From Octopus vulgaris (lineage: Eukaryota), in the NCBI GenBank assembly GCA_951406725.2, contig OX597816.1, positions 31,124,001 to 31,188,000 of the forward strand: DNA of 64,000 bases. The letters are read 5' to 3'. A model generated the notes under the pieces. That model was not told the DNA's origin and made no database searches. It saw only the letters and a program-made list of their open reading frames with translations. Position 1 is the stretch's first letter, and every line of letters starts with the position of its first letter. Shown piece after piece: positions 11,651 to 63,953 of this stretch. The translations under genes were made by a program, and so were the position numbers.

Positions 11651-11877
<227 letters not shown>

Positions 11878-11885
11878 TATATATA

Positions 11886-12922
11886 CAACCCAACATGCTG
11901 TAGTCGAAGGAGTCAAATCCAGCCCAGCCAAAGTCAGCAGTGGTGTCCCACAAGGCACTGTGTTAGGCCCACTTCTCTTCATCATCTACATAAATGATAT
12001 TACTGACACCATCAAACACAGTAACATCAGAACCTTCGCTGATGATTCCAAGCTCCAGAAGGTCATCAATGGCGTGGATGACCGAATAAACCTTCAGTCA
12101 GACCTACTGGCTGTTGTCCAATGGGCGGAAAAGAATTACATGTTGCTAAATGAAAACAAATTCGAACTGATCCACTTTGGAAGGGAGGACGCTCTGAAAC
12201 TCCCATACTCTCTTCCTTCTGGAGAAATTCTCATGGCATCCAACAACATCAGAGACCTGGGAGTAACAGTGGACAACAACATAAGCTGGGCTACACATAT
12301 AAGCAGCAAAGTTGACATGGCCCGCAGAATGTGTTCCTGGATTCTCAGAACCTTCCAGTCGAGAGATTCCCATGCTATTATCCTTCTCTTCTCCACTTTT
12401 GCCCGACCCCACCTTGAATACTGCTGTCCACTGTGGTCTCCCAACACAAAACAAAATATTATGAGAATTGAAGCTCCCCAAAGGTCAATCACAAAAAATA
12501 TAGATGGCATGTCAGACCTTGACTACTGGGGTAGACTAGAGAAGCTGAAATTGTATTCACTCCAACGACGCCGTGAACGCTACATTATCTGTATGATGTG
12601 GAAAATATTCCATCAGCACTGTCCGAATGATGCTGGCATCACCTTCAAAATGCATCCAAGGCTTGGACCACGTGCCATCCGTCCACAACAAAAATCTAAA
12701 TCACATCACATAACGACAATACGGCACAACTATTTCACCTCAATTGGACCCGTTCTCTTCAACATTACACCAGGACACGTCAAAAAAGAAACTGACCACA
12801 CAAAATTCAAGAAGTCTTTGGACAAATTCCTTCAAACAGTACCGGACAAACCACCCACACCCGGATATGTCTCCGCAAACAATAACTCTCTGCTCGAATG
12901 GGCCTTGGTGCCCAAATCCTGA
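11886..12922 (+). CDS. Reverse transcriptase fragment (N-truncated, uninterrupted) of CR1-like LINE
   Basis: RT motifs PQG and FADD in an open frame. The ORF-track start at 11855 comes from the flanking repeat and is not a genuine start. Confidence 0.85.
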
Positions 12923-13061: not shown

Positions 13062-13891
13062 CTCTAGATTACGCAAAACTGAAAATAACAGTGACTTCTT
13101 TATATTTACATAAAATTATCTTAAACTACTAAAGAGTAAACTTATACATTAAAATCACTATTGGCTTCAACCACAGCATTCCAGACGCTTTCAGAATAGC
13201 CTACAACTGTTGTGAACGGTCCCCTCGTTTAAGTTGGTGAATTCTGCCTCAGATAATCTTTTGTGTTACAAAGAGTTTTGTTCGTCTCTCGCTCAAGTGC
13301 GCCCCACACATAATAATCAAGGAGGTTACAGTCAGTGGAGTGAGATGACCAGATTTTAGGGGTGATGTGGTCACAGAAATTGTTTGACAGCCATGACTGG
13401 GTTCCCTCCCTTGTGTAGCATTGTTCAGAGTCCTGTTGCCAAATATAGAGCCATCCGGCAGCCATCCTCTTCACCCAGGGCAGCACTATCTCCTTCAGAC
13501 ATTTGACGTAGGCCTCCCTATTAAGCTTAAGGCTGTTTGGAGAGATGAATGGAGACATAACGCCGCCGTCACTAGTGATCACTCAAACACCATGATGTTG
13601 ACTGGATGTTAAATTTTTTATCAATCTCAGTATATGTCCTCAGATTGCACTGCCCCCGGATTGACACACAAACGCTCTGAATTGTTCGTATTGGAGATTC
13701 AGGCGCGAATGCCAAGCAGTACAGCATGTCATTTCCAAAATTTTGGCAGAGTGCCTCAAGACACAGTGCTGTTTTTCTCTCAGACGGTGTGCAACTGGCC
13801 TTACTATACTATGTATTCGACAAAATAAAAAGAAATGAGCATGCCCGAAATAAAAAATATAAAATGGCGAAAATTTACCCATCACGCCCTG
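13060..13891 (-). mobile_element. Internally deleted Tc1/mariner DD37D (maT-like) transposon remnant
   Basis: ORF 13229-13582 reads WQQDS..WSSHSTDCNLLDYYVWG, with 37 residues between the last two catalytic Asp. A terminal cagggcgtgatgggtaaattttcgccatt lies next to TA. Confidence 0.85.
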
Positions 13892-24262: not shown

Positions 24263-24470
24263 ACGCCATGATAGACCGTTAGCTCCTACACGCATTTTTT
24301 CTGTCCTTGTTTCTCTCCTTGTTTCTTTTCTGTGTATCTTTCTGTCGAAGAGCGTAGGCTCGAAACGTAAAAGACTTGTTCTATTTCTATTCCTGATCAC
24401 CATACTAATACATTTGTTTGTTTGTACTCCATCTGCCTTCGTCTTTTGTTTATTTTCGTAAACCTTCCCG

Positions 24471-28179: not shown

Positions 28180-29377
28180 TATTGGGCTGGCAAGAAAGCA
28201 ACAAATCTTCTTTTGGGAAATAGACATAGATACGATGTTTTTGATTGATTTTCTTCAATGTAATGATTTTATCCTTTTGACATTTGATAGCCGTTACATT
28301 TAGCGTACTTAAGAAGCACACGGAGTATAATTTTCTATACAGCTGTTAGTTCCGTGTCAGTCTTAACATGGTGTGCAAGCGTTTTCGCTATATTTTGTTT
28401 CTTTATTTCCGTAAAGGCAAGGCATTTGCTGAGATATGTCAAGTTTATGGTCTTGATTGCTTAAGGGAACGCACATGACAGAAATAGTTTTGAAAAATTA
28501 TCTGCAGGAAATTTATAACTCAACGTTGAACAACCTTCTGGTCGAACTACTGAAGATGATGATAACCAAATCAGAGCCATAAATGAATATAACTATGCGA
28601 TAAATTGCAGAGAGTGTCAATGTATAACAAACAACAATTGAAAATCACTTAAAATATCTTAAGAACATCGATATTCACACAAACTGAAAGAGATTCACGT
28701 AATTCAACGAAAGAACATTTGTGATATGCATCTCAAACGCAATGAAATCGATTTATTTTTAACCGACTCATCACTGGTGATGAAAAATGGATTGTCTGCT
28801 ATAACATGAATCGTAAACGACTATGGTCCAAGCGTAATGAGCCAGTACAAAACATATCAAAATTTAAATTGCATAAAAAAAAATGGTCATGCTTTCAATT
28901 TGGTAGTATTACAAAGGTGTTGTCTACTCTTAGCTGCTTGCAAAAAGCCGAACAAACAATTCGGATGTTTACTTTCTACAACTACCAAAACAGGAAGAAG
29001 CGATAAACGAAAACCGGCCAGTATTAGCAAATCGTAAAGGACTCGATTTACACCATAACAACGCTAGATCACACATGAATTTGCTAACTCGTGAAAAATT
29101 ATTGGTTCTTGCTTGTGAAGTGTTGTCACATCGACCATATATCCCTGTACGTGCAACATCAGGTTTTCAAAATTCCGTGAATGGTAAAACGTTCAATAAT
29201 ACTGATTGCTTGAAATCGCACTTGCTTCAGTTTTTGTCTGAGAAAAGCAAGAAGATTTATGCGCGCGGAATGATGAAGTTGCCAGAGAGATGGTAAAAGG
29301 TCATCGAATAAAACAGAAATTATATAATCGATTAAAGTTCATTCTTTCTATGAAAAAAAGTATTTTATTCCCGCCTC

Positions 29378-30745: not shown

Positions 30746-31530
30746 AAGGCGGCAAGCTGGCAGAAACGTTAGCACGCCGGGCGAAATGCTTAGCAGTATT
30801 TTGTCTGCCGCTACGTTCTGAGTTCAAATTCCGCCAAGGTCGACTTTGCCTTTCATCATTTAGGGGTCGATAAATTAAGTACCACTTATACACTGGGGTC
30901 GATATAATCGACTTAATCCGTTTGTCTGTCCTTGTTTGTCCCCTCTATGTTCAGCATTTTGTGGGTAGTAAAGAAATAGGTATTTCGTATGCCACTACGT
31001 TCTGAGGTCAAATGTCGCCGAGGTCGACTTTGCCTTTCATCCTTTCGGGGTCGATTAAATAAGTACCAGTTTTGCAGTGGGATCGATATAATCGAATTAA
31101 TCTGTGTGTCTGTCCTTGTTTGTCCTCTCTATTTTTAGCCCTTTGTAGGTAGTAAAGAAATAGGTATTTCGTCTGCTATTATATTCTGAGTTCAAATTCC
31201 ACCTAGGTCGACTTTGTCTTTCATCCTTCGCGGTCGATTAAATAATTACCAGTTACGCACTAGGGTCGATATATTCGACTTAATCCGTTTGTCTTTCTTT
31301 GTTTGTCCCCTCTGTTTGTAGTCCCTTGTAGGCAGTAAAAAATAAGAAGCGTCAGCACGCCGGGCGAAATGCTTAGCGATATTTCGTCTGTCTTTACGTT
31401 TTGAGTTCAAATTCCGCCAAGGTCAACTTTGCCTTTCAACCTTTCGGGGTCGATAAATTAAATACTAGTTATTTATTGAGGTTGATCTAATCGACTGGCC
31501 CCTTCCCCACCAAAACATTTCGGGCTTAGT
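30746..31530 (+). mobile_element. Head-to-tail array of four tRNA-derived SINE units (~184 bp period)
   Basis: Units start at ~30746, 30979, 31163 and 31346. Each has gagttcaaattccgcc (B-box-like) plus gtcgactttgcctttcatcctttcggggtcgat (Deu/Nin-like domain). Confidence 0.92.
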
Positions 31531-33041: not shown

Positions 33042-36000
33042 TTACATTGATAGGGTTTTTCTAAGGATGTGGGCATTACTTGTTAGCACAATCTTTTGGA
33101 TTTCCTTGAGACATGGTTTTCCAGGGATATTGTCTAGGTGTTTCTGACATCCCTTTTTTATCATACCTAGGGCACCTACAATAACAGGAACAGTTTTTGT
33201 TTTAAGATTCCACATCCTCTGTATTTCGATTTCCAGGTCCTTATATTTACTAAGTTTGTCAAATTCCTTGACAGATACATTTTTATCAGTGGGGACGCTT
33301 ACTTCTATTAGTCTGCAGGTATTTTCTTCCCTGTCTTTAACAATTATGTCTGGTCGATTAGCCTTGATCATTCTGTCCGTGTTGACTGGAAAATCCCAGA
33401 GGATGGTGACATCTTTACCTTCAACAACTGACTGAGGATGGTGTTCATACCAGTTAGCAGGAGTGTCGGATTTGTAGTGTTTACATGTCTTCCAATGTAT
33501 ATACTGTCCTACCCTATCGTGGCGATTTTTGTATTCGTTTGGTGTCAGCACAGGACATCCCGAAACGAGATGGTCTATCGTTTCGTCAAATGTGTCGCAG
33601 AATCTGCATTTAGGGTCAGTACCGTTTCGGAGAACGTTAGCCTGGTAATTTCTGGTAAACAAGCTTTGATCTTGTGCTGCCATTATGAAACCTTCAGTCT
33701 CTGCTTTCAATCCAGAGCTCTTCAGCCACTGATGGGTTGTTGCTTGGTCTACATCAGCATTTTGGCTTCGGAGAATATATTGTCCATGCAGGGGCTTCTG
33801 GCTCCACCGCCTCTCAATTTGATTCTGCCCGTTCTTTTTTGCAGTCTGCTTGATTCGCTTTGCTTGCTTGGTAGCAGTGGTTTCCAGCTCTTCATCTGAT
33901 TCAAGGTTAATGTCTAGTTCCCTTTCGAACTTATAAGCTTCCTTGACAATAGAATGCAGCTCTTTGTTGCTTTCGTGTTCGCGCACAAGTCGCAGCATCC
34001 AGTCCTTTGTACTAGATAGGTACCTGTTCATTCCTACAGTAGAGGTCTTATAGCACAGCTCTAATTGCATCATTCCTCTCCCCCCGCTGCTTCTAGGTAG
34101 GTACAAGCGGTCTACATCTGCCTTAGGGTGGTGCATGCTCCTGGATGTCAGTAATTTTCTTGTCTTCCTGTCTAAGCGTTGGAGTTCCGTAAGGTTCCAG
34201 TTAATGATATTAAAACTGTACTGGACTACTGGAAGTGCCAGGGTGTTAATGGCCTCAATGCAATTTTTGGAGTTGAGTTCAGTCTTCAGTACAAGCCTTA
34301 TTCTCCTATAGTATTCCTTTCTTATTTTTTCCTTCATAGTAGCATGATGTATACCATCTCCTTCGTTGATTCCTAGGTATTTGTAACTTTCCTGTGGGTC
34401 AAGTTCCTTGATGGTAGTGTCAATATCTAATTTAACAGAAGCTGTTTGCCTGAGCTTGCCTCTTACAAAAGTTGCTTTAGCACACTTATCAAGGCCAAAA
34501 TCCATTCCGATATCATTGCTAAACTCTTTAACAGTTGTTAGCAGCCCTTCTAGCTCTTGGTCATTCCTGGCAAACAGCTTTAGGTCGTCCATATAGAAAA
34601 GATGGTTTATTAATTTACTAAAAACTTTGTACCCATATCTAGTACTATCCAATTCGTTTGAGAGTGGGATCAGTGCCATGCAAAAAAGTAATGGAGAGAG
34701 GGAGTCACCTTGAAAGATGCCTCGTTTGATGTTGATGCTGTTGGACTGGCTCATCCCATTACTATGGCTTAGAAAGAGACGTGTGTTCCACATGGTCATG
34801 CTATTCTCTAAGAATTTTGAGACGACAGGAGAGATCTTGTATATCTCAAGGGCCTTGAGTATCCATTTATGTGGGACACTGTCATACGCTTTTCTGTAGT
34901 CTATCCATGCCATACTCAGGTTTTTGTTTTTGCTCCGGCAATTCTCTACAATCATTCTGTTTATGAGCAATTGGTCTTTTCACCCATAAGAGTTTCTTTT
35001 ACAACCTTTTTGAGCTTGTGGAAGGATAGAATTTTGTTCAAGGAAAGCGTACATTCTCTCCGTTATTATGGATGTGAGGATTTTGTAGGTGGTGTTGAGA
35101 CATGTTATTGGCCGGTAATTCTTTGGGTTTTTTTGTGTCTTCGGTTTTAGGTAATAGGTAGGTGGTTCCTTCAGTCAGCCAAGCAGGTATTTGCTCTGGG
35201 TTCTGAATGACATCAGACAGAGATGCAGTGAGATGTTCGTGTACCTCTGTCAAACAATTCAGCCAGAAGTTAGGGATCCGATCCAGTCCTGGGGTTTTCC
35301 ATTTATGAGCCTTCCTAAGGACACACCTTAGCTCCTCTATTCCTATTGCTTCCCATTTCTGTTCTTCAAGTTCATCCAGTCTCTCTTTCTCACGTTCTAT
35401 CCAGTCAGCCTCAGCATTAAACTCTTTTTCGTTGCTCCATACCTTCTTCCAGAACTCCTCCACTTCCTCAATCTTAGGTGGATCTTCTATGTGTATTTTA
35501 TTTTTGCCAATTTCCCTATAAAATTTCTTTGCATCTGTCTTAAAAAATTTATTTTGTCGATAAAATTTGTTTCTTTTGTCATACCTTCTAAGCCGTTGAG
35601 CTTTCAACTGTATCCGTTGTTTCAACAGTTCCTTAGTTGCAGGGAGGTTTATGAGATCTTTGATTTTATATTTTTGCTTGATTTTTCTAGCTTTTCTCGG
35701 CTTAATATTCACTCCTCTAGCAAGCTCATCGAGAACTGAAACATCCGCCCGCAGAGATTCAATCTCTTTTTGTATCGCTACTTTCCACTTAGGAGGTTCA
35801 TTGACATGCCTGGCCTTTTTCTTTGTCATCTTAATACCTAGTTGGGTAGTTACTACTTTAGCAGTGGAATAAATGAGATTATTTAAGGTTGTCAAATCAT
35901 TCCCCTTATTTCTTAAGATCTGTCCTAGGGCAACGTTATATGTCATGATTGTGTTGTTATTTCTTGTGCCATTTGAAAACTTTGGTAGTGGTTCTCTATT

Positions 36001-36747
36001 AACCATGTCAGTGAGCTCAATCTTGCCGAGTTCTCTCATAATGTCCACTTTTGCTTCCATAATCTTTTCTCTATTATTCACCTCAAATTCTATGTCATAT
36101 CTATTTTGGTTTTCTTGAGGAAGGTCTACGTTCTCCTCTTTTTTCAAATCTCTCGTCTTCGCTATTCTTTGTTTAACTTCCCCATTGGGAAGTTGATTTG
36201 CCGCTTGTACACTGGCTTCTGTGCTACTGTTACCTATTTCGTCTACATTGTTGCTGTTTTCTTTTGGTCTACCATGAGCTATCAGTGTCCTAATTTTGTC
36301 AATTTCAGCGTCAGTTAGTCTTTTGTTTTTAATTATATCTCTGCGTACATTACTTAATTTATTTGCGTCTATATATCTACGTACGTCATTGCCTACTGAA
36401 TTTCTCCATGAGATGTATGTTTGTACACTGAGGTTATTATTTGGGTTTAGTTGGGCTGTATAAAAAGCTTTCAACACATCTCTATAGTCCTCTCTGGTCC
36501 ATTTTATACGTTTTGCTTTAGGTAGTGTTTTTGGTGGTGTCACTACAAGTCCAGAGTTAGAAGTATTCTGGTTCTGGTCACCTGGTAGATCGTCTTTTTG
36601 AGAGTTTGTTCCAGCAGCAAACTTTTCGACCCCAGTCTGGTTCCCTACTGGGTAACGCGGTCCTTGTTGTCCCGGGCGATGACCGATCCGGCATGATTTT
36701 TGGCTTGTTTTCATTAAATGATTGACGGCGACATCAGAGGGGTCCAT
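33042..36747 (-). pseudogene. RT/RLE polyprotein of R4/Dong element, disrupted by one +1 frameshift (A7 run, 35128-35134) and one in-frame TGA (34980-34982)
   Basis: KWTREDY (N-terminal Myb-like), WKTPGLDRIPNFWL, (shifted) NYRPITCLNTTYKILT, AWIDYRKAYDSVPH, GIFQGDSLSPLLF, YMDD, CRFC..ETIDHLVSGC, RHD, RPD..IEVSVP..KLSKY. Confidence 0.93.
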
Positions 36748-37089
36748 TTTTTCAGAGTCAACTTTTTGACAAGACGCCGCCTCTGTGACGGTGTCGTTAG
36801 AAGAAGGAGTGTTTGTACAGGGTCAATTTTTTGACAAGACACCGCTTCTGAATTCTCCGAATTAATATATTGTTCATATCGAACTCGCATAAGACTTACA
36901 GATCGAAATTCGCCTCTATTTATTTTGGTAGTCATGTTTCCGGGCATAACTGTTCAATGACTTTCTAAATTCAGTGACCAATTTGCTCTTTTTTGCGTTT
37001 GTTCGTGAAAAATCGCTTTGTTTTTGTTTTGTTTTCGTCCGCGTAACGTGGTTTTTCTTTCTGTGTGTACGTGTGAGCGCTATTTATGC

Positions 37090-54114: not shown

Positions 54115-56002
54115 CAACTTATCAATAGCCTGGATAGACTATAAAAAGGCTTTTTATAGCCTACCACATAGCTGGATTAGGAAATGCCTTGAAATGTATA
54201 AGATAGCACCAACTCTGCGAAACTTCTTGACTGTAAGTATGAGATCATGGAGAACCACAGTAACTCTGAACAGTGACAGTGAATCCCTAAATGCTGGTGA
54301 TGTAAAAATTTCGTGTGGCATTTTCCAGGGTGACTCACTGTCACCACTCCTCTTTTGTTTATCCTTAATACCTCTCTAAAAGCTGCTCAATGACGCGCAG
54401 TACGGGTATAAAATGTTTGATAAAAATATAAATCATCTCGTTTACATGGATGATTTAAAGCTTTTTGCAAAAAATGATCAACAACTCAAGGGCTTACTAG
54501 CGATAGTCAAACAATTCAGTGACGACATCAGAATGCAATTCGGCCTTGATAAATGTGCAAAGGCTACCTTTATCAAAGGAAAAATGACAGAAACATCTAA
54601 CGTTAACCTTGACCAACAGAATGTCATAAAAGAACTAGACCCAGCGGAGAGCTACAAGTACCTAGGGGTAATTGAAGGGAACGGAATAAGGCATTCAGAG
54701 ATGAAGGAAAGGATCAGGAGAGAATGCTATCGAAGAGTGAGAGCAATACTCAAGACAGAGCTGAATGCAAGAAACAGGATCGAAGCAATCAATGCATTAG
54801 CTATACCAGTCGTGACTTACAGTTTCAATATTGTTAACTGGTCAATTACTGAAATATGTCAGCTCGACAGAAAAATAAGGAAACTGTTAACAATGCATAG
54901 AATGCACCACCCTAAGGCAGATACAGAACGACTCTATCTGCCAAGAAAAGAGGGAGGCCGTAGTCTTTTGCAACTGGCAATAACAATGAAGATTGCTACA
55001 ATTGGCCTAGACACCTACATGAAAAACTCTGAGGACTGGATGTTAAAACTTGTCTCAAAACATGAAAACAAGAAAGCATCATACTCAGTCACAAAACAGG
55101 CAAAGGAATATCTAAGTGAATTCCGAATACAACCAATTTCGGAATTAGAGATAGATATACAAGAAACAAGCACAGAAAAAGCTAGGCGCATGAAAACCCG
55201 TGCCAAAACTGCGGCCTTAGATATTCTGAATAATAAATGGCAAGAAAAACCTCTCTATGGTAAATACCCAAAGAGAGCGAATAATGCAGATATCGACAAA
55301 GCCCTGACCCATCAATGGCTAATGGCCTCTGGCTTAAAATCTGAAACAGAAGGGTTTATCATAGCAGCTCAAGATCAATGCCTACCAACAAGAAACTACC
55401 AGGCCAACATATTAAAGATCAGAAGCAGTCCAACATGTCGTGTATGCAAGCTACAAAATGAAACCATTGACCATGTGGTCTCCAAGTGCAGTCTTCTAGC
55501 GCCTACAGAGTATCTCAACAGGCACGATAGAGCTGCACAATATATTCACTGGGTAATCTGTAAAAACCTGGATTTGCCCCATGAAAAAAACTGGTGGGAA
55601 CACAAACCACCCCCAGTGCTTGAAAATGACCACATCTCACTCCTCTGGAACTTCACCATTCAAACTGACAGGAAGATAGATGCAAATAGGTCACACATCA
55701 TATTGAAAGACTTCAAACAAAGAACCTGCCCCCTCATTGATATGACTGTCCCAATCGATATAAACGTATCTGTCAAGACCTACCAAAAACTGAGCAAATA
55801 TAAAGATCTTGAAATAGAAATCAGCAAAATGTGGAAGCTGAAGACTAAAACAATACCTGTTGTCATAGGTGCCCTGGGAATGATAGCAAAAGGGGCTGAT
55901 AGCTACCTAACTCAGATACCAGGAAACCCAAAAATGGCAGAAGTTCAAAAGATAGTGCTCATGGGAACTGCTCATATCCTACGCAAAATACTCTCTATGT
56001 AA
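54110..56002 (+). pseudogene. Truncated RT/RLE coding region; premature stop and the RLE PD motif changed to SH
   Basis: NRSHII here versus NRPDII in the 33 kb copy; AFYS versus AYDS. Confidence 0.88.
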
Positions 56003-58187: not shown

Positions 58188-59878
58188 TATTGAGAGATAC
58201 ATAGATATAGTATTACGTATGGCATTATACACAAATATATGCTTCAGTCAAGCCGCAATATCCAGCTGCATGATCCACTTGTACGGAAGCTTTCACAACC
58301 AAACTCCGAGGATTGCCTTCGTCCATTAAAAACCCACCTAAAATGAGATTGAATGTAACTAAGCGTGCATGTGCAATAGCTTATTTTAGATTTTCATTAT
58401 GACACTCAGTAGCACTTTGCCTGATCAACAATAAATCATGCCTAAAGCATAGTAGTTACAGCGAAACGGGAAATATCTAAAGAGAATCTACTCTAAAACA
58501 CTAGGAAATGGTTGATATAACATTTAATCATGTGAAATAACATCTTGAAGGAAATATAACGAAAAATTATTTTTTAATTCCTACATCACTAAGATTTATA
58601 TTACAAAAGTGTCTGCACATTCACGTTGTATTCTAACAATATATACAATGTATTCTGCTAGGCTAACAACAGATTGACTTCCTGAGCGTTCGATATCCTA
58701 TAATATGTAGCTACATCAGTATTAATGCACTAACTACTACATTAAATGTAGTGCATTGCATATCATACTAAGTGATGCATTATTGTTTAATCAGTTCAGC
58801 AAGTTTATATTTTATTTATAAGTTTCGAACTAGACTTAAACGTTAGCAATATCTATAATAACAAACTCAATACTCATTCCTGAAATATTGCATAAGATAT
58901 CATTGGAGCAAATTCGGAAATTCGATACTGAATCTAGACCGTTTGTGACCAAAACTATTGGATGTCATTTTAAACATATCCTTATTTACAAATAGCTCTC
59001 AGTGAAAAGGAAAACAAAGAAATTTCAGACTCCACTGAATGAACAAATGTTCAGTCTTAATAAGACGTTTTCTGTACAAATTTAGGTTAAATAAATTCAA
59101 CGTGTCTTGCACTTGTATATTAATCCGATATAATAGGAACAGAATGTGAAAGCAACTGTGGCATCTAGTCAAAACACGTCAATATAAATCTAATAAAAGT
59201 TCACGATATCGGTTCTATGTCTTATATTAGGAGATCATCAAAAGGAAATTAAAGATTGATACGAGCAGATCAAATAAAATTCGTTTAAGGGGAAACAACG
59301 TCTATTCAATGGTAGTAAGTGTAGATATAATAATAGTCATAGGCATTAAAATTGCTGTAAACTTGATAATCATGACATACATTTCTATTTCTCATTTTCT
59401 CTACGTCTTTTTTATTAGTATCAGTTCAGCTATAATCATTTCATTATGTACATTCGGGATGTTTCAGAGCACGTCTTAGCTATAAATCACTTGGTCAGTC
59501 GGCAGACCACTAGACGGATGTTGTATGTGAATGTGTGTGTATAAGTGGCGAACCTACGTATGTAACCACTATACATGCGTTGGGTGTGTGTGCATTTTTG
59601 TGTCACAGTAAATTTTCGAATGTCTGCACTGCTGATGTAAAACCGTGTGTTGAAACAAGTATTGTTGTATTTCGGGAAGAATGGATTAAGGAGAGCAGAG
59701 GCACAAACGAGGTCGACAATTGTCGTTGAAGTGGTTACTGATGCGCGACGAGAGATTTCCGGACAATGAGGTAAAACCAGAACAGTAATGAACGGCCAAA
59801 GAACGAATATATAATGCATGTGCATGTGTTTGTGGGGAAGCAATATTTAGATAAACACAAACACAAACACACACACAC

Positions 59879-59933
<55 letters not shown>

Positions 59934-59971
59934 AAACAATGTAAAATTGAAAGCTACTGCTCGAGTGAAAA

Positions 59972-60380
59972 TATATACGAAAGAGGATTTTAAAATGCAG
60001 AGGTCTTTATTGACTTCACAGGTTTCACATTTAAAAAAAAAAAGATTTTTAAAACTAAAATGTAAAGCTTTGTGTCGCCTTTGTTGTGTTAAAACATGGT
60101 TATTATAGGTGTATTAAAATACAGTGATACGGTCTTTCACAATGAAGAGAAAACCTTGAGAAACTGAATCTTTGACAATAAGAAAACATTCAGAGGGGCT
60201 TATTGTTTAAACAGTTTACATAAAAGTGTTCAAAATAGGTAGTAAAATAAAAAAAATATATTTTCAACACAACACAGGCTACACAAAGCTCTACATTTTA
60301 CATGTGAAAATAACATGTGAAACCGGTCAGGTCAATAAACATCTTTAAAATACCTCTGGATTTTCAAACCCTCTTTTCTG

Positions 60381-60385
<5 letters not shown>
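59972..60385. repeat. Diverged fold-back element (~125 bp arms) between (TA)n runs
   Basis: aaaatgtaaagctttgtgtcgcct..gttgtgtt pairs with aacacaac..aggctacacaaagctctacatttt. The right arm has GAAACCGGTC-aggtc-AATAAA, and its termini resemble those of 60461-62787. Confidence 0.8.
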
Positions 60386-60461
<76 letters not shown>

Positions 60462-60499
60462 GAAAGAAGGTTTGAAAATGCAATTTAAAAGATGTTTAT

Positions 60500-60544
60500 T
60501 TACTTAACCGGTTTCACTCTTTGGAAAAAGATTGTCAAAAGTAA
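60500..60544 (-). ncRNA. Hammerhead-like motif, U3-A8 core variant (left-arm copy)
   Basis: Exact reverse complement of 62704-62748. Confidence 0.55.
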
Positions 60545-62703
60545 CATAGAATATTATGAATTCAAAAAAGTTTTTTACATAATTGCCACATTGAATGTTA
60601 TGAATTCAAAAAAGTTTTTTTTACATAATTGCCACATTACATGTATATATATAGTCTTTGGTAACAGGGACATGTTAAGGGCATAAAGAAGTTCAACAGT
60701 GTGATGAGAATATTTGAAAGAATGGGCAGAAAAGAATAAAACAAATATATTATTGGAAGTTTGGTTGCGTTAATTATTGGTTGTTGCAAATTGTCACATT
60801 ACATGTATATATACAGTCTTTGGTAAAAAGGACATAGTACAACAGTATGGTGAGAATATTTGAAAAATTGGCGGAAAAAATTATTAAAATGAATATATTA
60901 TACATCTCAGGGTCAGTATAGAATATTATGAATTCAAGGCGAGTTTGTTTACTGATCTGTCCGTTTTAGCAGAAATGTTGAATTGAGAAAAATGTACCCG
61001 TTTTTTTCTGTTTATGGCTTTCCTTCAAGCATCAATGATTTTGGGGTTAGCATGAGGTGAGTATGTGTGTCTCTCTGCGTGTGCGTGAATAGATGTGTCT
61101 GTGCGCCTGTAGTATTTGGTCAGATGGCGTCTGTTTGTCAAGTGTGTGTGGTTGTCATGGTGTTGTGTGTGCGTGTCTGTGCGTGTGCGCGTGTGCCTGC
61201 GTGTGTACGCATGCATGAGTGTGGATGGCATTTGACATGGGCTGCGTGTGTATATATGTGCCTGTATGGAGGTGAGGCTGGTGTGAGTGTGCGTGCCCCT
61301 GTGTGCGTGCACACACACGTATACAAGCATCTGCGTGTGTGTGGGGGCTGTTTTTGAATGGTTTCAGGGTGGCGAAAATAGATGTGTGTTGTTTAAAGAA
61401 TTTTTTGGGGTAGGATGGTGTGTGTATATATGCGTGTCCGCCCGTGCGCGCCCGTGCGCGTCTACGCGTGTGTGCGGGCCATACATACATACTAAAACAC
61501 ATACACACACACACATCACACACACACACACAACGCACACACATATAATATACACACACAACACACAAAAATAACATGTATTTATATATAATACACACAC
61601 ATATATAACACACACACACAACACACGCACACATACATACATAATATAAATATAACACAAATACACCTAGCACATATATACATACAATACACATACACAG
61701 CATGTGTATAATACACATAAACAATATATACATACAATATACTTACACAATACATACATATAATATATATATATATAGACAATGCATATACATATATACA
61801 TATATACATATAAATAGTGTTTACATACACATACATAAATATACCACATATACACACAATATACATACATACAATGTATACATATACACGTACGCATACA
61901 TATAACATATATATATACACATAACATACACATACACATATACACATGATGTACACATACATATACAATACACATACATACAATATACATATACACAATG
62001 CACATAATGCACATCTATATACACATATATATATATATTCACACATATACACATACACACATATATATATAATGCACACACAAACACAAAATACATACAT
62101 ATAGCGTACACACACATATATATCTACATACCACACACACACACACAAACAATGTACTCATATATACACATATACACATATATACACACACACAACACAC
62201 ACATATATACATATATATAAAAAACATATACACATATAAATACATACACACACACAATGCACACACACACACACGCACACACACACACAACGCACACACA
62301 CACACACCACACACACACACACACACACATTGACCCTGAGATGTATAATATATTCATTTTAATAATTTTTTCTGCCAATTTTTCAAATATTCTCACCATA
62401 CTGTTGTACTATGTCCTCTTTATCAAAGACTGTATATATACATGTAATGTGACAATTTGCAACAACCAATAATTAACGCAACCAAACTTCCAATAATATA
62501 TTTTTTTTATTCTTTTCTGCCCATTCTTTCAAATATTCTCATCACACTGTTGAACTTCTTTATGCTCTTAACATGTCCCTGTTACCAAAGACTATATATA
62601 TACATGTAATGTGGCAATTATGTAAAAAAAACTTTTTTGAATTCATAACATTCAATGTGGCAATTATGTAAAAAACTTTTTTGAATTCATAATATTCTAT
62701 ATG

Positions 62704-62748
62704 TTACTTTTGACAATCTTTTTCCAAAGAGTGAAACCGGTTAAGTAA
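62704..62748 (+). ncRNA. Hammerhead-like motif, U3-A8 core variant (right-arm copy)
   Basis: TTACTT-TTGACAA-TCTTT-TTCC-AAAGA-GT-GAAA-CCGGTT-AAGTAA. Stem I is 6 bp, stem II is 5 bp, stem III is the palindrome ACCGGT and the triplet is GUU. There is an extra GT before GAAA. Confidence 0.55.
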
Positions 62749-62834
62749 ATAAACATCTTTTAAATTGCATTTTCAAACCTTCTTTCGTATGTAATTCCAC
62801 TCGTGCGATACCCCACAACTCAACTTTATATATA

Positions 62835-63654
62835 TATGTTTAAAATGAGCCAAACAGTATTTACCATCCATAATAATTACAACATTCTAATACAGTGAAG
62901 AACGTATCAGCACGCTTTGGGAGTATCGGTGTCATCGTTGCTCTCATCTATGAAACAAAATATTTAATAAGTATGTATACGCATACAGATACACATAAAA
63001 AGAAAATGCGCATACTCACAAACATACACATATACACATATACACACATACTCACAAATATATAAATATTTATATGTTATATATACCGGAGTAAACACAT
63101 AAATGTGAAACAAGGTGGAAAAAGAGTACTCAAATACCAGTGGTAGAGTAATATGCTTTGTATAAAGCAGCAGAAAATTCAACAACACCTGTTACTCTGA
63201 GGTTCCCATTGCCGTTCATCGGACAGTTTTTGCTAGAAAAACTGTTTTTGTTAGCAAAAACTGTCCAACGAACGGCAACGGGAAACTTAGAGTAACAGGT
63301 GTTGTTGAATTTTCTGCTGCTTTAAATAAAGCATATTACTCTACCACTGGTATTTGAGTACTCTTTTTTCCACCTTGTTTCACATTTATGTGTTTACTCC
63401 GGTATATATAATATATAAATATTTATATATTTGTGAGTGTGTGTGTATATGTGTATATGTGTATGTTTGTGAGTATGCGCATTTTCTTTATGTGTATCTG
63501 TATGCGTATACATACTTATTAAATATTTTGTTTCATAGATGAGAGCAACGACGACACCGATATTCCCAAAGCGTGCTGATACGTTCTTCACTGTATTAGA
63601 ATGTTGTAATTATTATGGATGGTAAATACTGTTTGGCTCGTCATTTGAAACATA
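62835..63654. repeat. ~820 bp near-perfect palindrome centred at ~63243
   Basis: Arms of ~405 bp pair almost to the apex (aaaaac-t-gttttt), with outer ends gagccaaacagtatttaccatcc / ggatggtaaatactgtttggctc. Confidence 0.98.
63189..63298. ncRNA. Divergent pair of hammerhead-like motifs at the palindrome apex (63189-63226 minus; 63261-63298 plus)
   Basis: Minus: CTGT-CCGATGA-ACGGCAATGG-GAAC-CTCAGA-GTA-ACAG. Plus: CTGT-CCAACGA-ACGGCAACGG-GAAAC-TTAGA-GTA-ACAG. Stem I is CTGT/ACAG, and the two-arm consensus approximates CYGANGA..GAAAC..GUA. Confidence 0.45.
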
Positions 63655-63889
63655 AGACCTCACATCACTATTTCTTCATTAAGCTAGAACGTATTATATA
63701 TAATCTGATTATTAACAGAATTCATTGTTTTAAGATGAATTGAAGTAATCCTTTCTCAGTTTCGGTGAGTAAAAACGAATATTGAAATCTAACGACTCCC
63801 ACCGAGTGTACGTGTTTTTTTCTCAGATTTGCGCATTAGTTAACAGCAAGAGACCATGTGAACTTTTCAACTTTCAATAAATGAATATG

Positions 63890-63953
<64 letters not shown>

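Follow-up and report, generated by a model that had tools for sequence, protein, structure and literature searches.

The window analysed here is a 64-kb stretch of animal-like, repeat-rich DNA with LINE RT frames. These frames were observed at 11834-12922 on the forward strand, with a Pfam RVT_1 match, and by eye at 33042-36822 on the reverse strand and 54380-56002 on the forward strand. Mariner-like fragments at 13229-13582 and 28746-29296, and a SINE-like unit of 184 bp with 2.8 tandem copies at 30796-31313, were also recognized by eye.

Near the right end of the window, an inverted repeat was confirmed. Its arms at 60455-60915 and 62331-62793 (~460 bp each) are 98.27% identical over 463 columns, and they differ from each other by five internal substitutions, one 2-bp indel and one boundary difference. 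The insertion extends over 60461-62826 (2.37 kb), 39 bp beyond the end given in a first-pass annotation of the same DNA, and an ORF check found no RT or GIY-YIG ORF within it. The left arm directly adjoins a (TA)40 tract at 60381-60460, and a (TA)5 tract at 62827-62837 follows the tail of the right arm. With this microsatellite target, no target-site duplication is discernible, as the TA tracts on either side mask any that the unit could have when the flanks are inspected.

The left arm (60461-60915, reverse strand) is the pLTR-like repeat of the longer copy and has no tail. It contains a block of ~208 bp (60548-60755, reverse strand) made by internal duplication, comprising a 44-bp pair and the first 162-bp unit, which is skipped in other copies and is itself multi-copy. 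The 44-bp and 162-bp sub-repeats, as well as a 20-bp recurrence at 60918-60937, are present as initially described. Upstream of the left arm is a repeated segment (60916-61060, reverse strand) that is absent from the right arm. By eye it looks like an ORF end, with no protein match. A 42-residue ORF-like piece of this segment, a short query, yielded one candidate and no scored one, with 0 matches among 1.84 billion representatives, and Pfam returned 0 families for this piece or for a 30-residue piece from the neighbouring insertion described below. Incidentally, a consensus-like splice donor, GAG/GTGAGT, is found at 61050-61065 on the forward strand, where the repeated segment meets the GT-rich tract, on the strand opposite the left hammerhead.

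The spacer (61061-62330) is of low complexity, GT-rich and then CA-rich with the switch near 61480. The right arm (62331-62790, forward strand) is an inverted, 5′-truncated copy of the left-arm repeat, and a 36-bp tail (62791-62826, forward strand) follows the right arm only. Toward its outward end, each arm has a hammerhead-like motif and then AATAAA.

The minimal hammerhead-like motif of the left tip lies at 60500-60544 on the reverse strand, with U3 at 60538, A8 at 60533 and position 17 at 60506. That of the right tip, which has the U3-A8 core, lies at 62704-62748 on the forward strand, with AATAAA starting at 62748. In the right tip, a 6-bp stem I, TTACTT/AAGTAA (62704-62709/62743-62748), encloses the TTGACAA core at 62710-62716 and GAAA at 62733-62736, which is followed by CCGG, U16.1 at 62741 and position 17 at T62742. 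Core positions 3-9 and 12-17 read UUGACAA, GAAA and UH, and the 3-8 pair is present, U3-A8 being a double substitution relative to the canonical core. The UUGACAA core with U3-A8, the 6-bp stem I and the palindromic ACCGGT reported initially were all found in their places. The palindromic ACCGGU (15.1-16.1) allows a dimer, whose intermolecular duplex is predicted at -10.7 kcal/mol.

Stem II can form in two registers of nearly equal energy. In one, 'GT' before GAAA is unpaired (-1.7 kcal/mol), and in the other, a U10.1·U11.1 mismatch precedes five pairs (-1.9 kcal/mol). The unpaired 'GT' noted earlier therefore holds for the first register and not for the second. The G10.1-C11.1 pair is absent, its place being taken by U·U, or by U-A with 2 unpaired nt.

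A hammerhead descriptor that allows C-G, U-A or G-C at 3-8 matched at two places in the window, namely both tips, while of 100 dinucleotide shuffles a single one was matched, at one place. As the motif was already known when the descriptor was written, this control is lenient. No hammerhead family was among the 150 matches that Rfam listed over the window; nearly all were sub-threshold matches of repeats to microRNA families. Minimum-energy folding does not give the monomer hammerhead, and the stability of the tip is no better than that of shuffles (z = 0.70). Elsewhere in the window, another hammerhead-like motif was noticed at 24334-24376 on the forward strand. It has a 5-bp stem I, a GAGC/GCTC stem, GAAA-CG-TA and an odd core CTGTCGA, and a (TA)n tract follows ~95 bp further on.

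Other copies of the repeat were examined in sequencing runs. A search listed 24 runs; 20 had part of the left arm, with no RNA run listed among these. From four runs (X1, X3, X6 and X9), one per organism label, 2251, 1534, 783 and 439 contigs were aligned to 60445-61100 at 80% likeness. Summed contig depth, which does not equal copy number, peaks at 1.45 million at the tip in X1, compared with 28-225 for single listed X1 pieces, so the tip is very highly repeated. Relative to the tip (1.0), the depth is 0.13-0.22 at the core, 0.07-0.16 at 60797-60818 and 0.013-0.075 at 61017-61038 in 4/4 runs, with the gradient being non-monotonic due to a dip to ~0.001 at 60863-60884. This fall from the tip in all four runs, with its one dip, indirectly indicates variable 5′ truncation across copies, and such a profile fits retro-copies truncated at the 5′ end better than it fits cut-and-paste transposition. 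No listed contig spans the whole of 60445-61100, and the uncovered part carries no proof. In one X1 contig, the strand changes between 60918 and 60986. Patterns from the tip matched nothing in viral contigs or in two metagenome scans.

In the 45-nt motif, substitutions occur at two places only among the 40 of 43 rows listed. Position 17, which is U here, is C in 8-55% and A in 27-46% of the depth, and a U-A pair of stem I becomes U·G in 4-21% of the depth. The same rows contain no other letter at U3, A8 or the remaining core (60532-60538 and 60512-60515) and no covariation of positions 3 and 8 within the family, and two further variant records also read UUGACAA. Across the 90-bp tip, only three places have listed substitutions. 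As judged from the aligned copies, U3-A8 is the norm among them, and this core is a trait of the family, as is the 'GT' preceding GAAA. Because only 13-22% of the tip depth reaches the core, C3-G8 relatives could hide among the copies that do not align. The conserved core letters may be taken as modest evidence of selection, and the missing G at position 17 could be chance. A 2-nt loss in stem II, which had been suggested earlier for this copy, is unsupported, since the indel rows listed (12 of 14) contain no insertion at 60516-60517 and the U·U register needs no loss.

Farther inside the arm, 11 of the 15 joints listed (of 18) leave the tip at 60542-60548 and rejoin the arm at 60754-60768, and loose ends at 60753 run on into the end of the second 162-bp unit. 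Other copies thus join the tip directly to the 60756-60915 block. These joints reveal a common form of the repeat without the 208-bp block, and the internal duplication found in this arm is multi-copy in 4/4 runs. Going by the contigs, the inner sub-repeats are family duplications rather than a capture at this locus.

Both arms share letters that are rare in the family, as another letter is found at 60597 in 100% (4/4 runs), at 60720 in 99-100%, at 60688 in 90-100% and at 60681 in 87-96%. Such sharing suggests that the arms came from one template, or were converted, and it supports the earlier proposal that one template was duplicated in inverted form.

The spacer was compared with itself as an inner palindrome, and its score of 67 exceeded those of 200/200 two-letter block shuffles (maximum 42). 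Unrelated tracts scored 63-160 against the right half and 26-48 against the left half. A decayed inner palindrome was rejected, its homology being unsupported when unrelated tracts score as high against the right half.

Two separate PLE insertions of one subfamily could have flanked a host microsatellite in opposite orientations, possibly with gene conversion afterwards. In favour of two insertions, a (CA)n tract gives way abruptly to the right arm, PLE-type repeats are clustered in the region, and the spacer self-score of 67 is no better than the scores of generic tracts against its right half. On the other hand, the arms share at least four family-rare letters and the 208-bp duplication, and the first 40 bp of the GT-rich tract, which are the only aligned portion of it, are multi-copy. 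We consider two insertions improbable.

The tail was recognized from contigs running past the left tip, which numbered 11 in X1 and 13 in X3; the 24 of 304 loose ends listed included no such row for X6 or X9. In a by-eye comparison, these X1 and X3 loose ends match the right-arm extension of the window at 22/24 and 23/26 letters, so 62791-62826 belongs to the element. By ending the unit at 62787, the first-pass annotation had missed this family tail, its most diagnostic feature. A hairpin at 62785-62808, with a 7-bp stem and a 10-nt loop, straddles the tip/tail border (-6.5 kcal/mol).

An older relative with the same layout is found next to the unit at 59934-60386 (forward strand), with inverted tips, a ~38-bp tail on the inverted left copy only and TA flanks. 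Its tips are 69% alike to each other and 71-82% to the tip of the unit, and their cores have decayed to GTGAAAA and TTAAAAA. Its tail matches an X3 loose end at 24/30 letters. Within this neighbour, a short frame at 60118-60207 resembles, by eye, the terminus of a GIY-YIG domain, with no Pfam match.

On the other side, adjoining the tail of the unit, a near-perfect palindrome of 793 bp (96%, 4-nt loop) occupies 62847-63639. From the centre outward, each of its arms has a stretch resembling a hammerhead, in which CCGATGA or CCAACGA replaces CTGANGA. AATAAA is present in the right arm, and each arm has a TG-rich GT..AG intron-like stretch and an ATG. This palindrome is probably part of a second PLE family. 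At 59855-63932, three inverted-repeat insertions lie side by side as an insertion cluster, with TA tracts bounding each.

A non-autonomous DNA transposon of the MITE or foldback kind, with long terminal inverted repeats (TIRs), a TA target duplication and a hammerhead likeness that was inherited or arose by chance, would agree with inverted arms that are 98% identical, TA on both sides and no coding capacity. It is nevertheless very unlikely, because the ends are asymmetric by the 36-bp family tail and those of the neighbour are likewise asymmetric, because the depth falls from the tip in 4/4 runs, and because AATAAA and the hammerhead-like motif face outward in both arms. The symmetric fixed ends of a TIR DNA transposon or MITE are lacking, the tail being one-sided in the unit and the neighbour alike. 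The retro origin of PLE type, preferred from the beginning to a TIR DNA transposon, gains support from the one-sided tail, the depth falling from the tip and the neighbour with the same layout.

The initial proposal was a chimera formed at this locus, with an unrelated repeat captured by a ribozyme tip of 90 bp and stem II shortened by 2 nt. In its favour, depth at the tip exceeds that of most inner-arm bins by 5- to >100-fold, and many contigs depart from the arm near 60547. It is nevertheless hardly tenable, as these contigs rejoin the arm as described above (11/15 joints listed), the inner block is multi-copy and the inner arm highly repeated in 4/4 runs, other copies join the tip to 60756-60915, and an insertion that would mark the 2-nt loss is missing from the indel rows listed.

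The locus is very probably explained by one PLE-type insertion event, in which two truncated copies pointing outward, only one of them tailed, were left in a TA tract. The link to a PLE enzyme rests on the layout, as no RT or GIY-YIG match was obtained. From published PLE work, we infer that an RT-endonuclease supplied in trans would nick TA-rich DNA, and that reverse transcription of the element RNA would begin downstream of the hammerhead, at either of two start sites. The near start site would produce the untailed copy, and the far start site would produce the copy with the 36-bp tail. Both copies are 5′-truncated and face away from each other, giving the look of TIRs. Published PLE insertions include an inverted copy truncated at the 5′ end, have a tail of 30-40 bp on one side and show a (TA)n bias that hides target duplications (Craig 2021, PMC8557442). 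In PLEs, the tail corresponds to the stretch from one reverse-transcription start site to the other, and hammerhead cleavage is dispensable for PLE insertion in vitro (Frangione 2024, PMC11167929). A highly doubtful further idea is that the telomerase-related RT of the element, in joining the two truncated ends, added the AC-rich tracts that lie ahead of each arm on the sense strand of that arm. PLEs can carry other DNA between their repeats (PMC6431247), and by analogy the spacer is a possible PLE cargo.

The unit resembles the insertions of Craig 2021 also in having a hammerhead in the terminal repeat, along with the inverted 5′-truncated copy, the tail at one end and the (TA)n flanks. Unlike those described there, no ORF was recovered in the unit, and 1.4 kb of low-complexity DNA lies between its copies, whereas the published inverted copy is immediately adjacent. 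A search of the literature linking hammerhead ribozyme, octopus and Penelope found only Craig 2021, and 'hammerhead' appears 0 times in the available main text of an Octopus vulgaris repeat paper (PMC13282606).

U3-A8 was reported in ~1,300 Schistosoma motifs, with opposite-strand hammerhead pairs 100-700 bp apart and with activity that is low and dimer-dependent (Cervera and De la Pena 2014, PMC4209133). The U3-A8 core and the inverted layout are therefore already in print, and there is no novelty in either. The unit shares the U3-A8 core, the short stem I, the palindromic 15.2-16.2 and the opposite-strand pairing of motifs with these PLE minimal hammerheads. On the other hand, it has no G10.1-C11.1, which is typical of them although outside the descriptor of that paper, and its stem II opens with U·U or with 2 nt unpaired. 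Its stem II has 5 weak pairs compared with 7-8, and its motifs are 2.2 kb apart. The unit would work like the terminal repeat of a PLE carrying a minimal hammerhead of the U3-A8 type, and it is not a textbook member because G10.1-C11.1 is absent.

In natural hammerheads, U3-A8 covariation and the U10.1-U11.1 mismatch have each been reported (Perreault 2011, PMC3088659), and in the available text of that paper no report was found of both changes in one motif or in a PLE. The double variant may already be present in Lunse et al., on PLE hammerhead variants, or in the supplements of Cervera 2014. Non-LTR retrozymes (bioRxiv 10.64898/2026.07.22.740005) are like the unit in being non-coding and PLE-derived with a type I hammerhead, but they are described as head-to-tail tandems with a hammerhead per unit, whereas the copies here are inverted. 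The unit lacks such a tandem, and the 44/162-bp repeats gave no match to the hammerhead descriptor.

The two motifs at this locus are on opposite strands, so they cannot dimerise in cis, and a read-through RNA would pair the sense copy with its own antisense. The hammerhead at this copy is probably inert. For the family as a whole, it is possible, if rather unlikely, that the hammerhead works with both U3-A8 and a U10.1·U11.1 mismatch instead of G-C, and that this double departure is fixed throughout a very large family, in at least four organism labels, and still under selection. In keeping with selection, position 17 takes U, C or A and the sole stem I variant is a wobble.

The unit is a clean example of a PLE insertion mimicking a TIR element, and misfiling of such insertions in repeat libraries is possible. 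Long fold-backs of this kind could give double-stranded RNA if they are transcribed. If the motif with U3-A8 and U·U cleaves, the tolerated hammerhead core would be widened, and standard descriptors would be missing a very abundant animal family.
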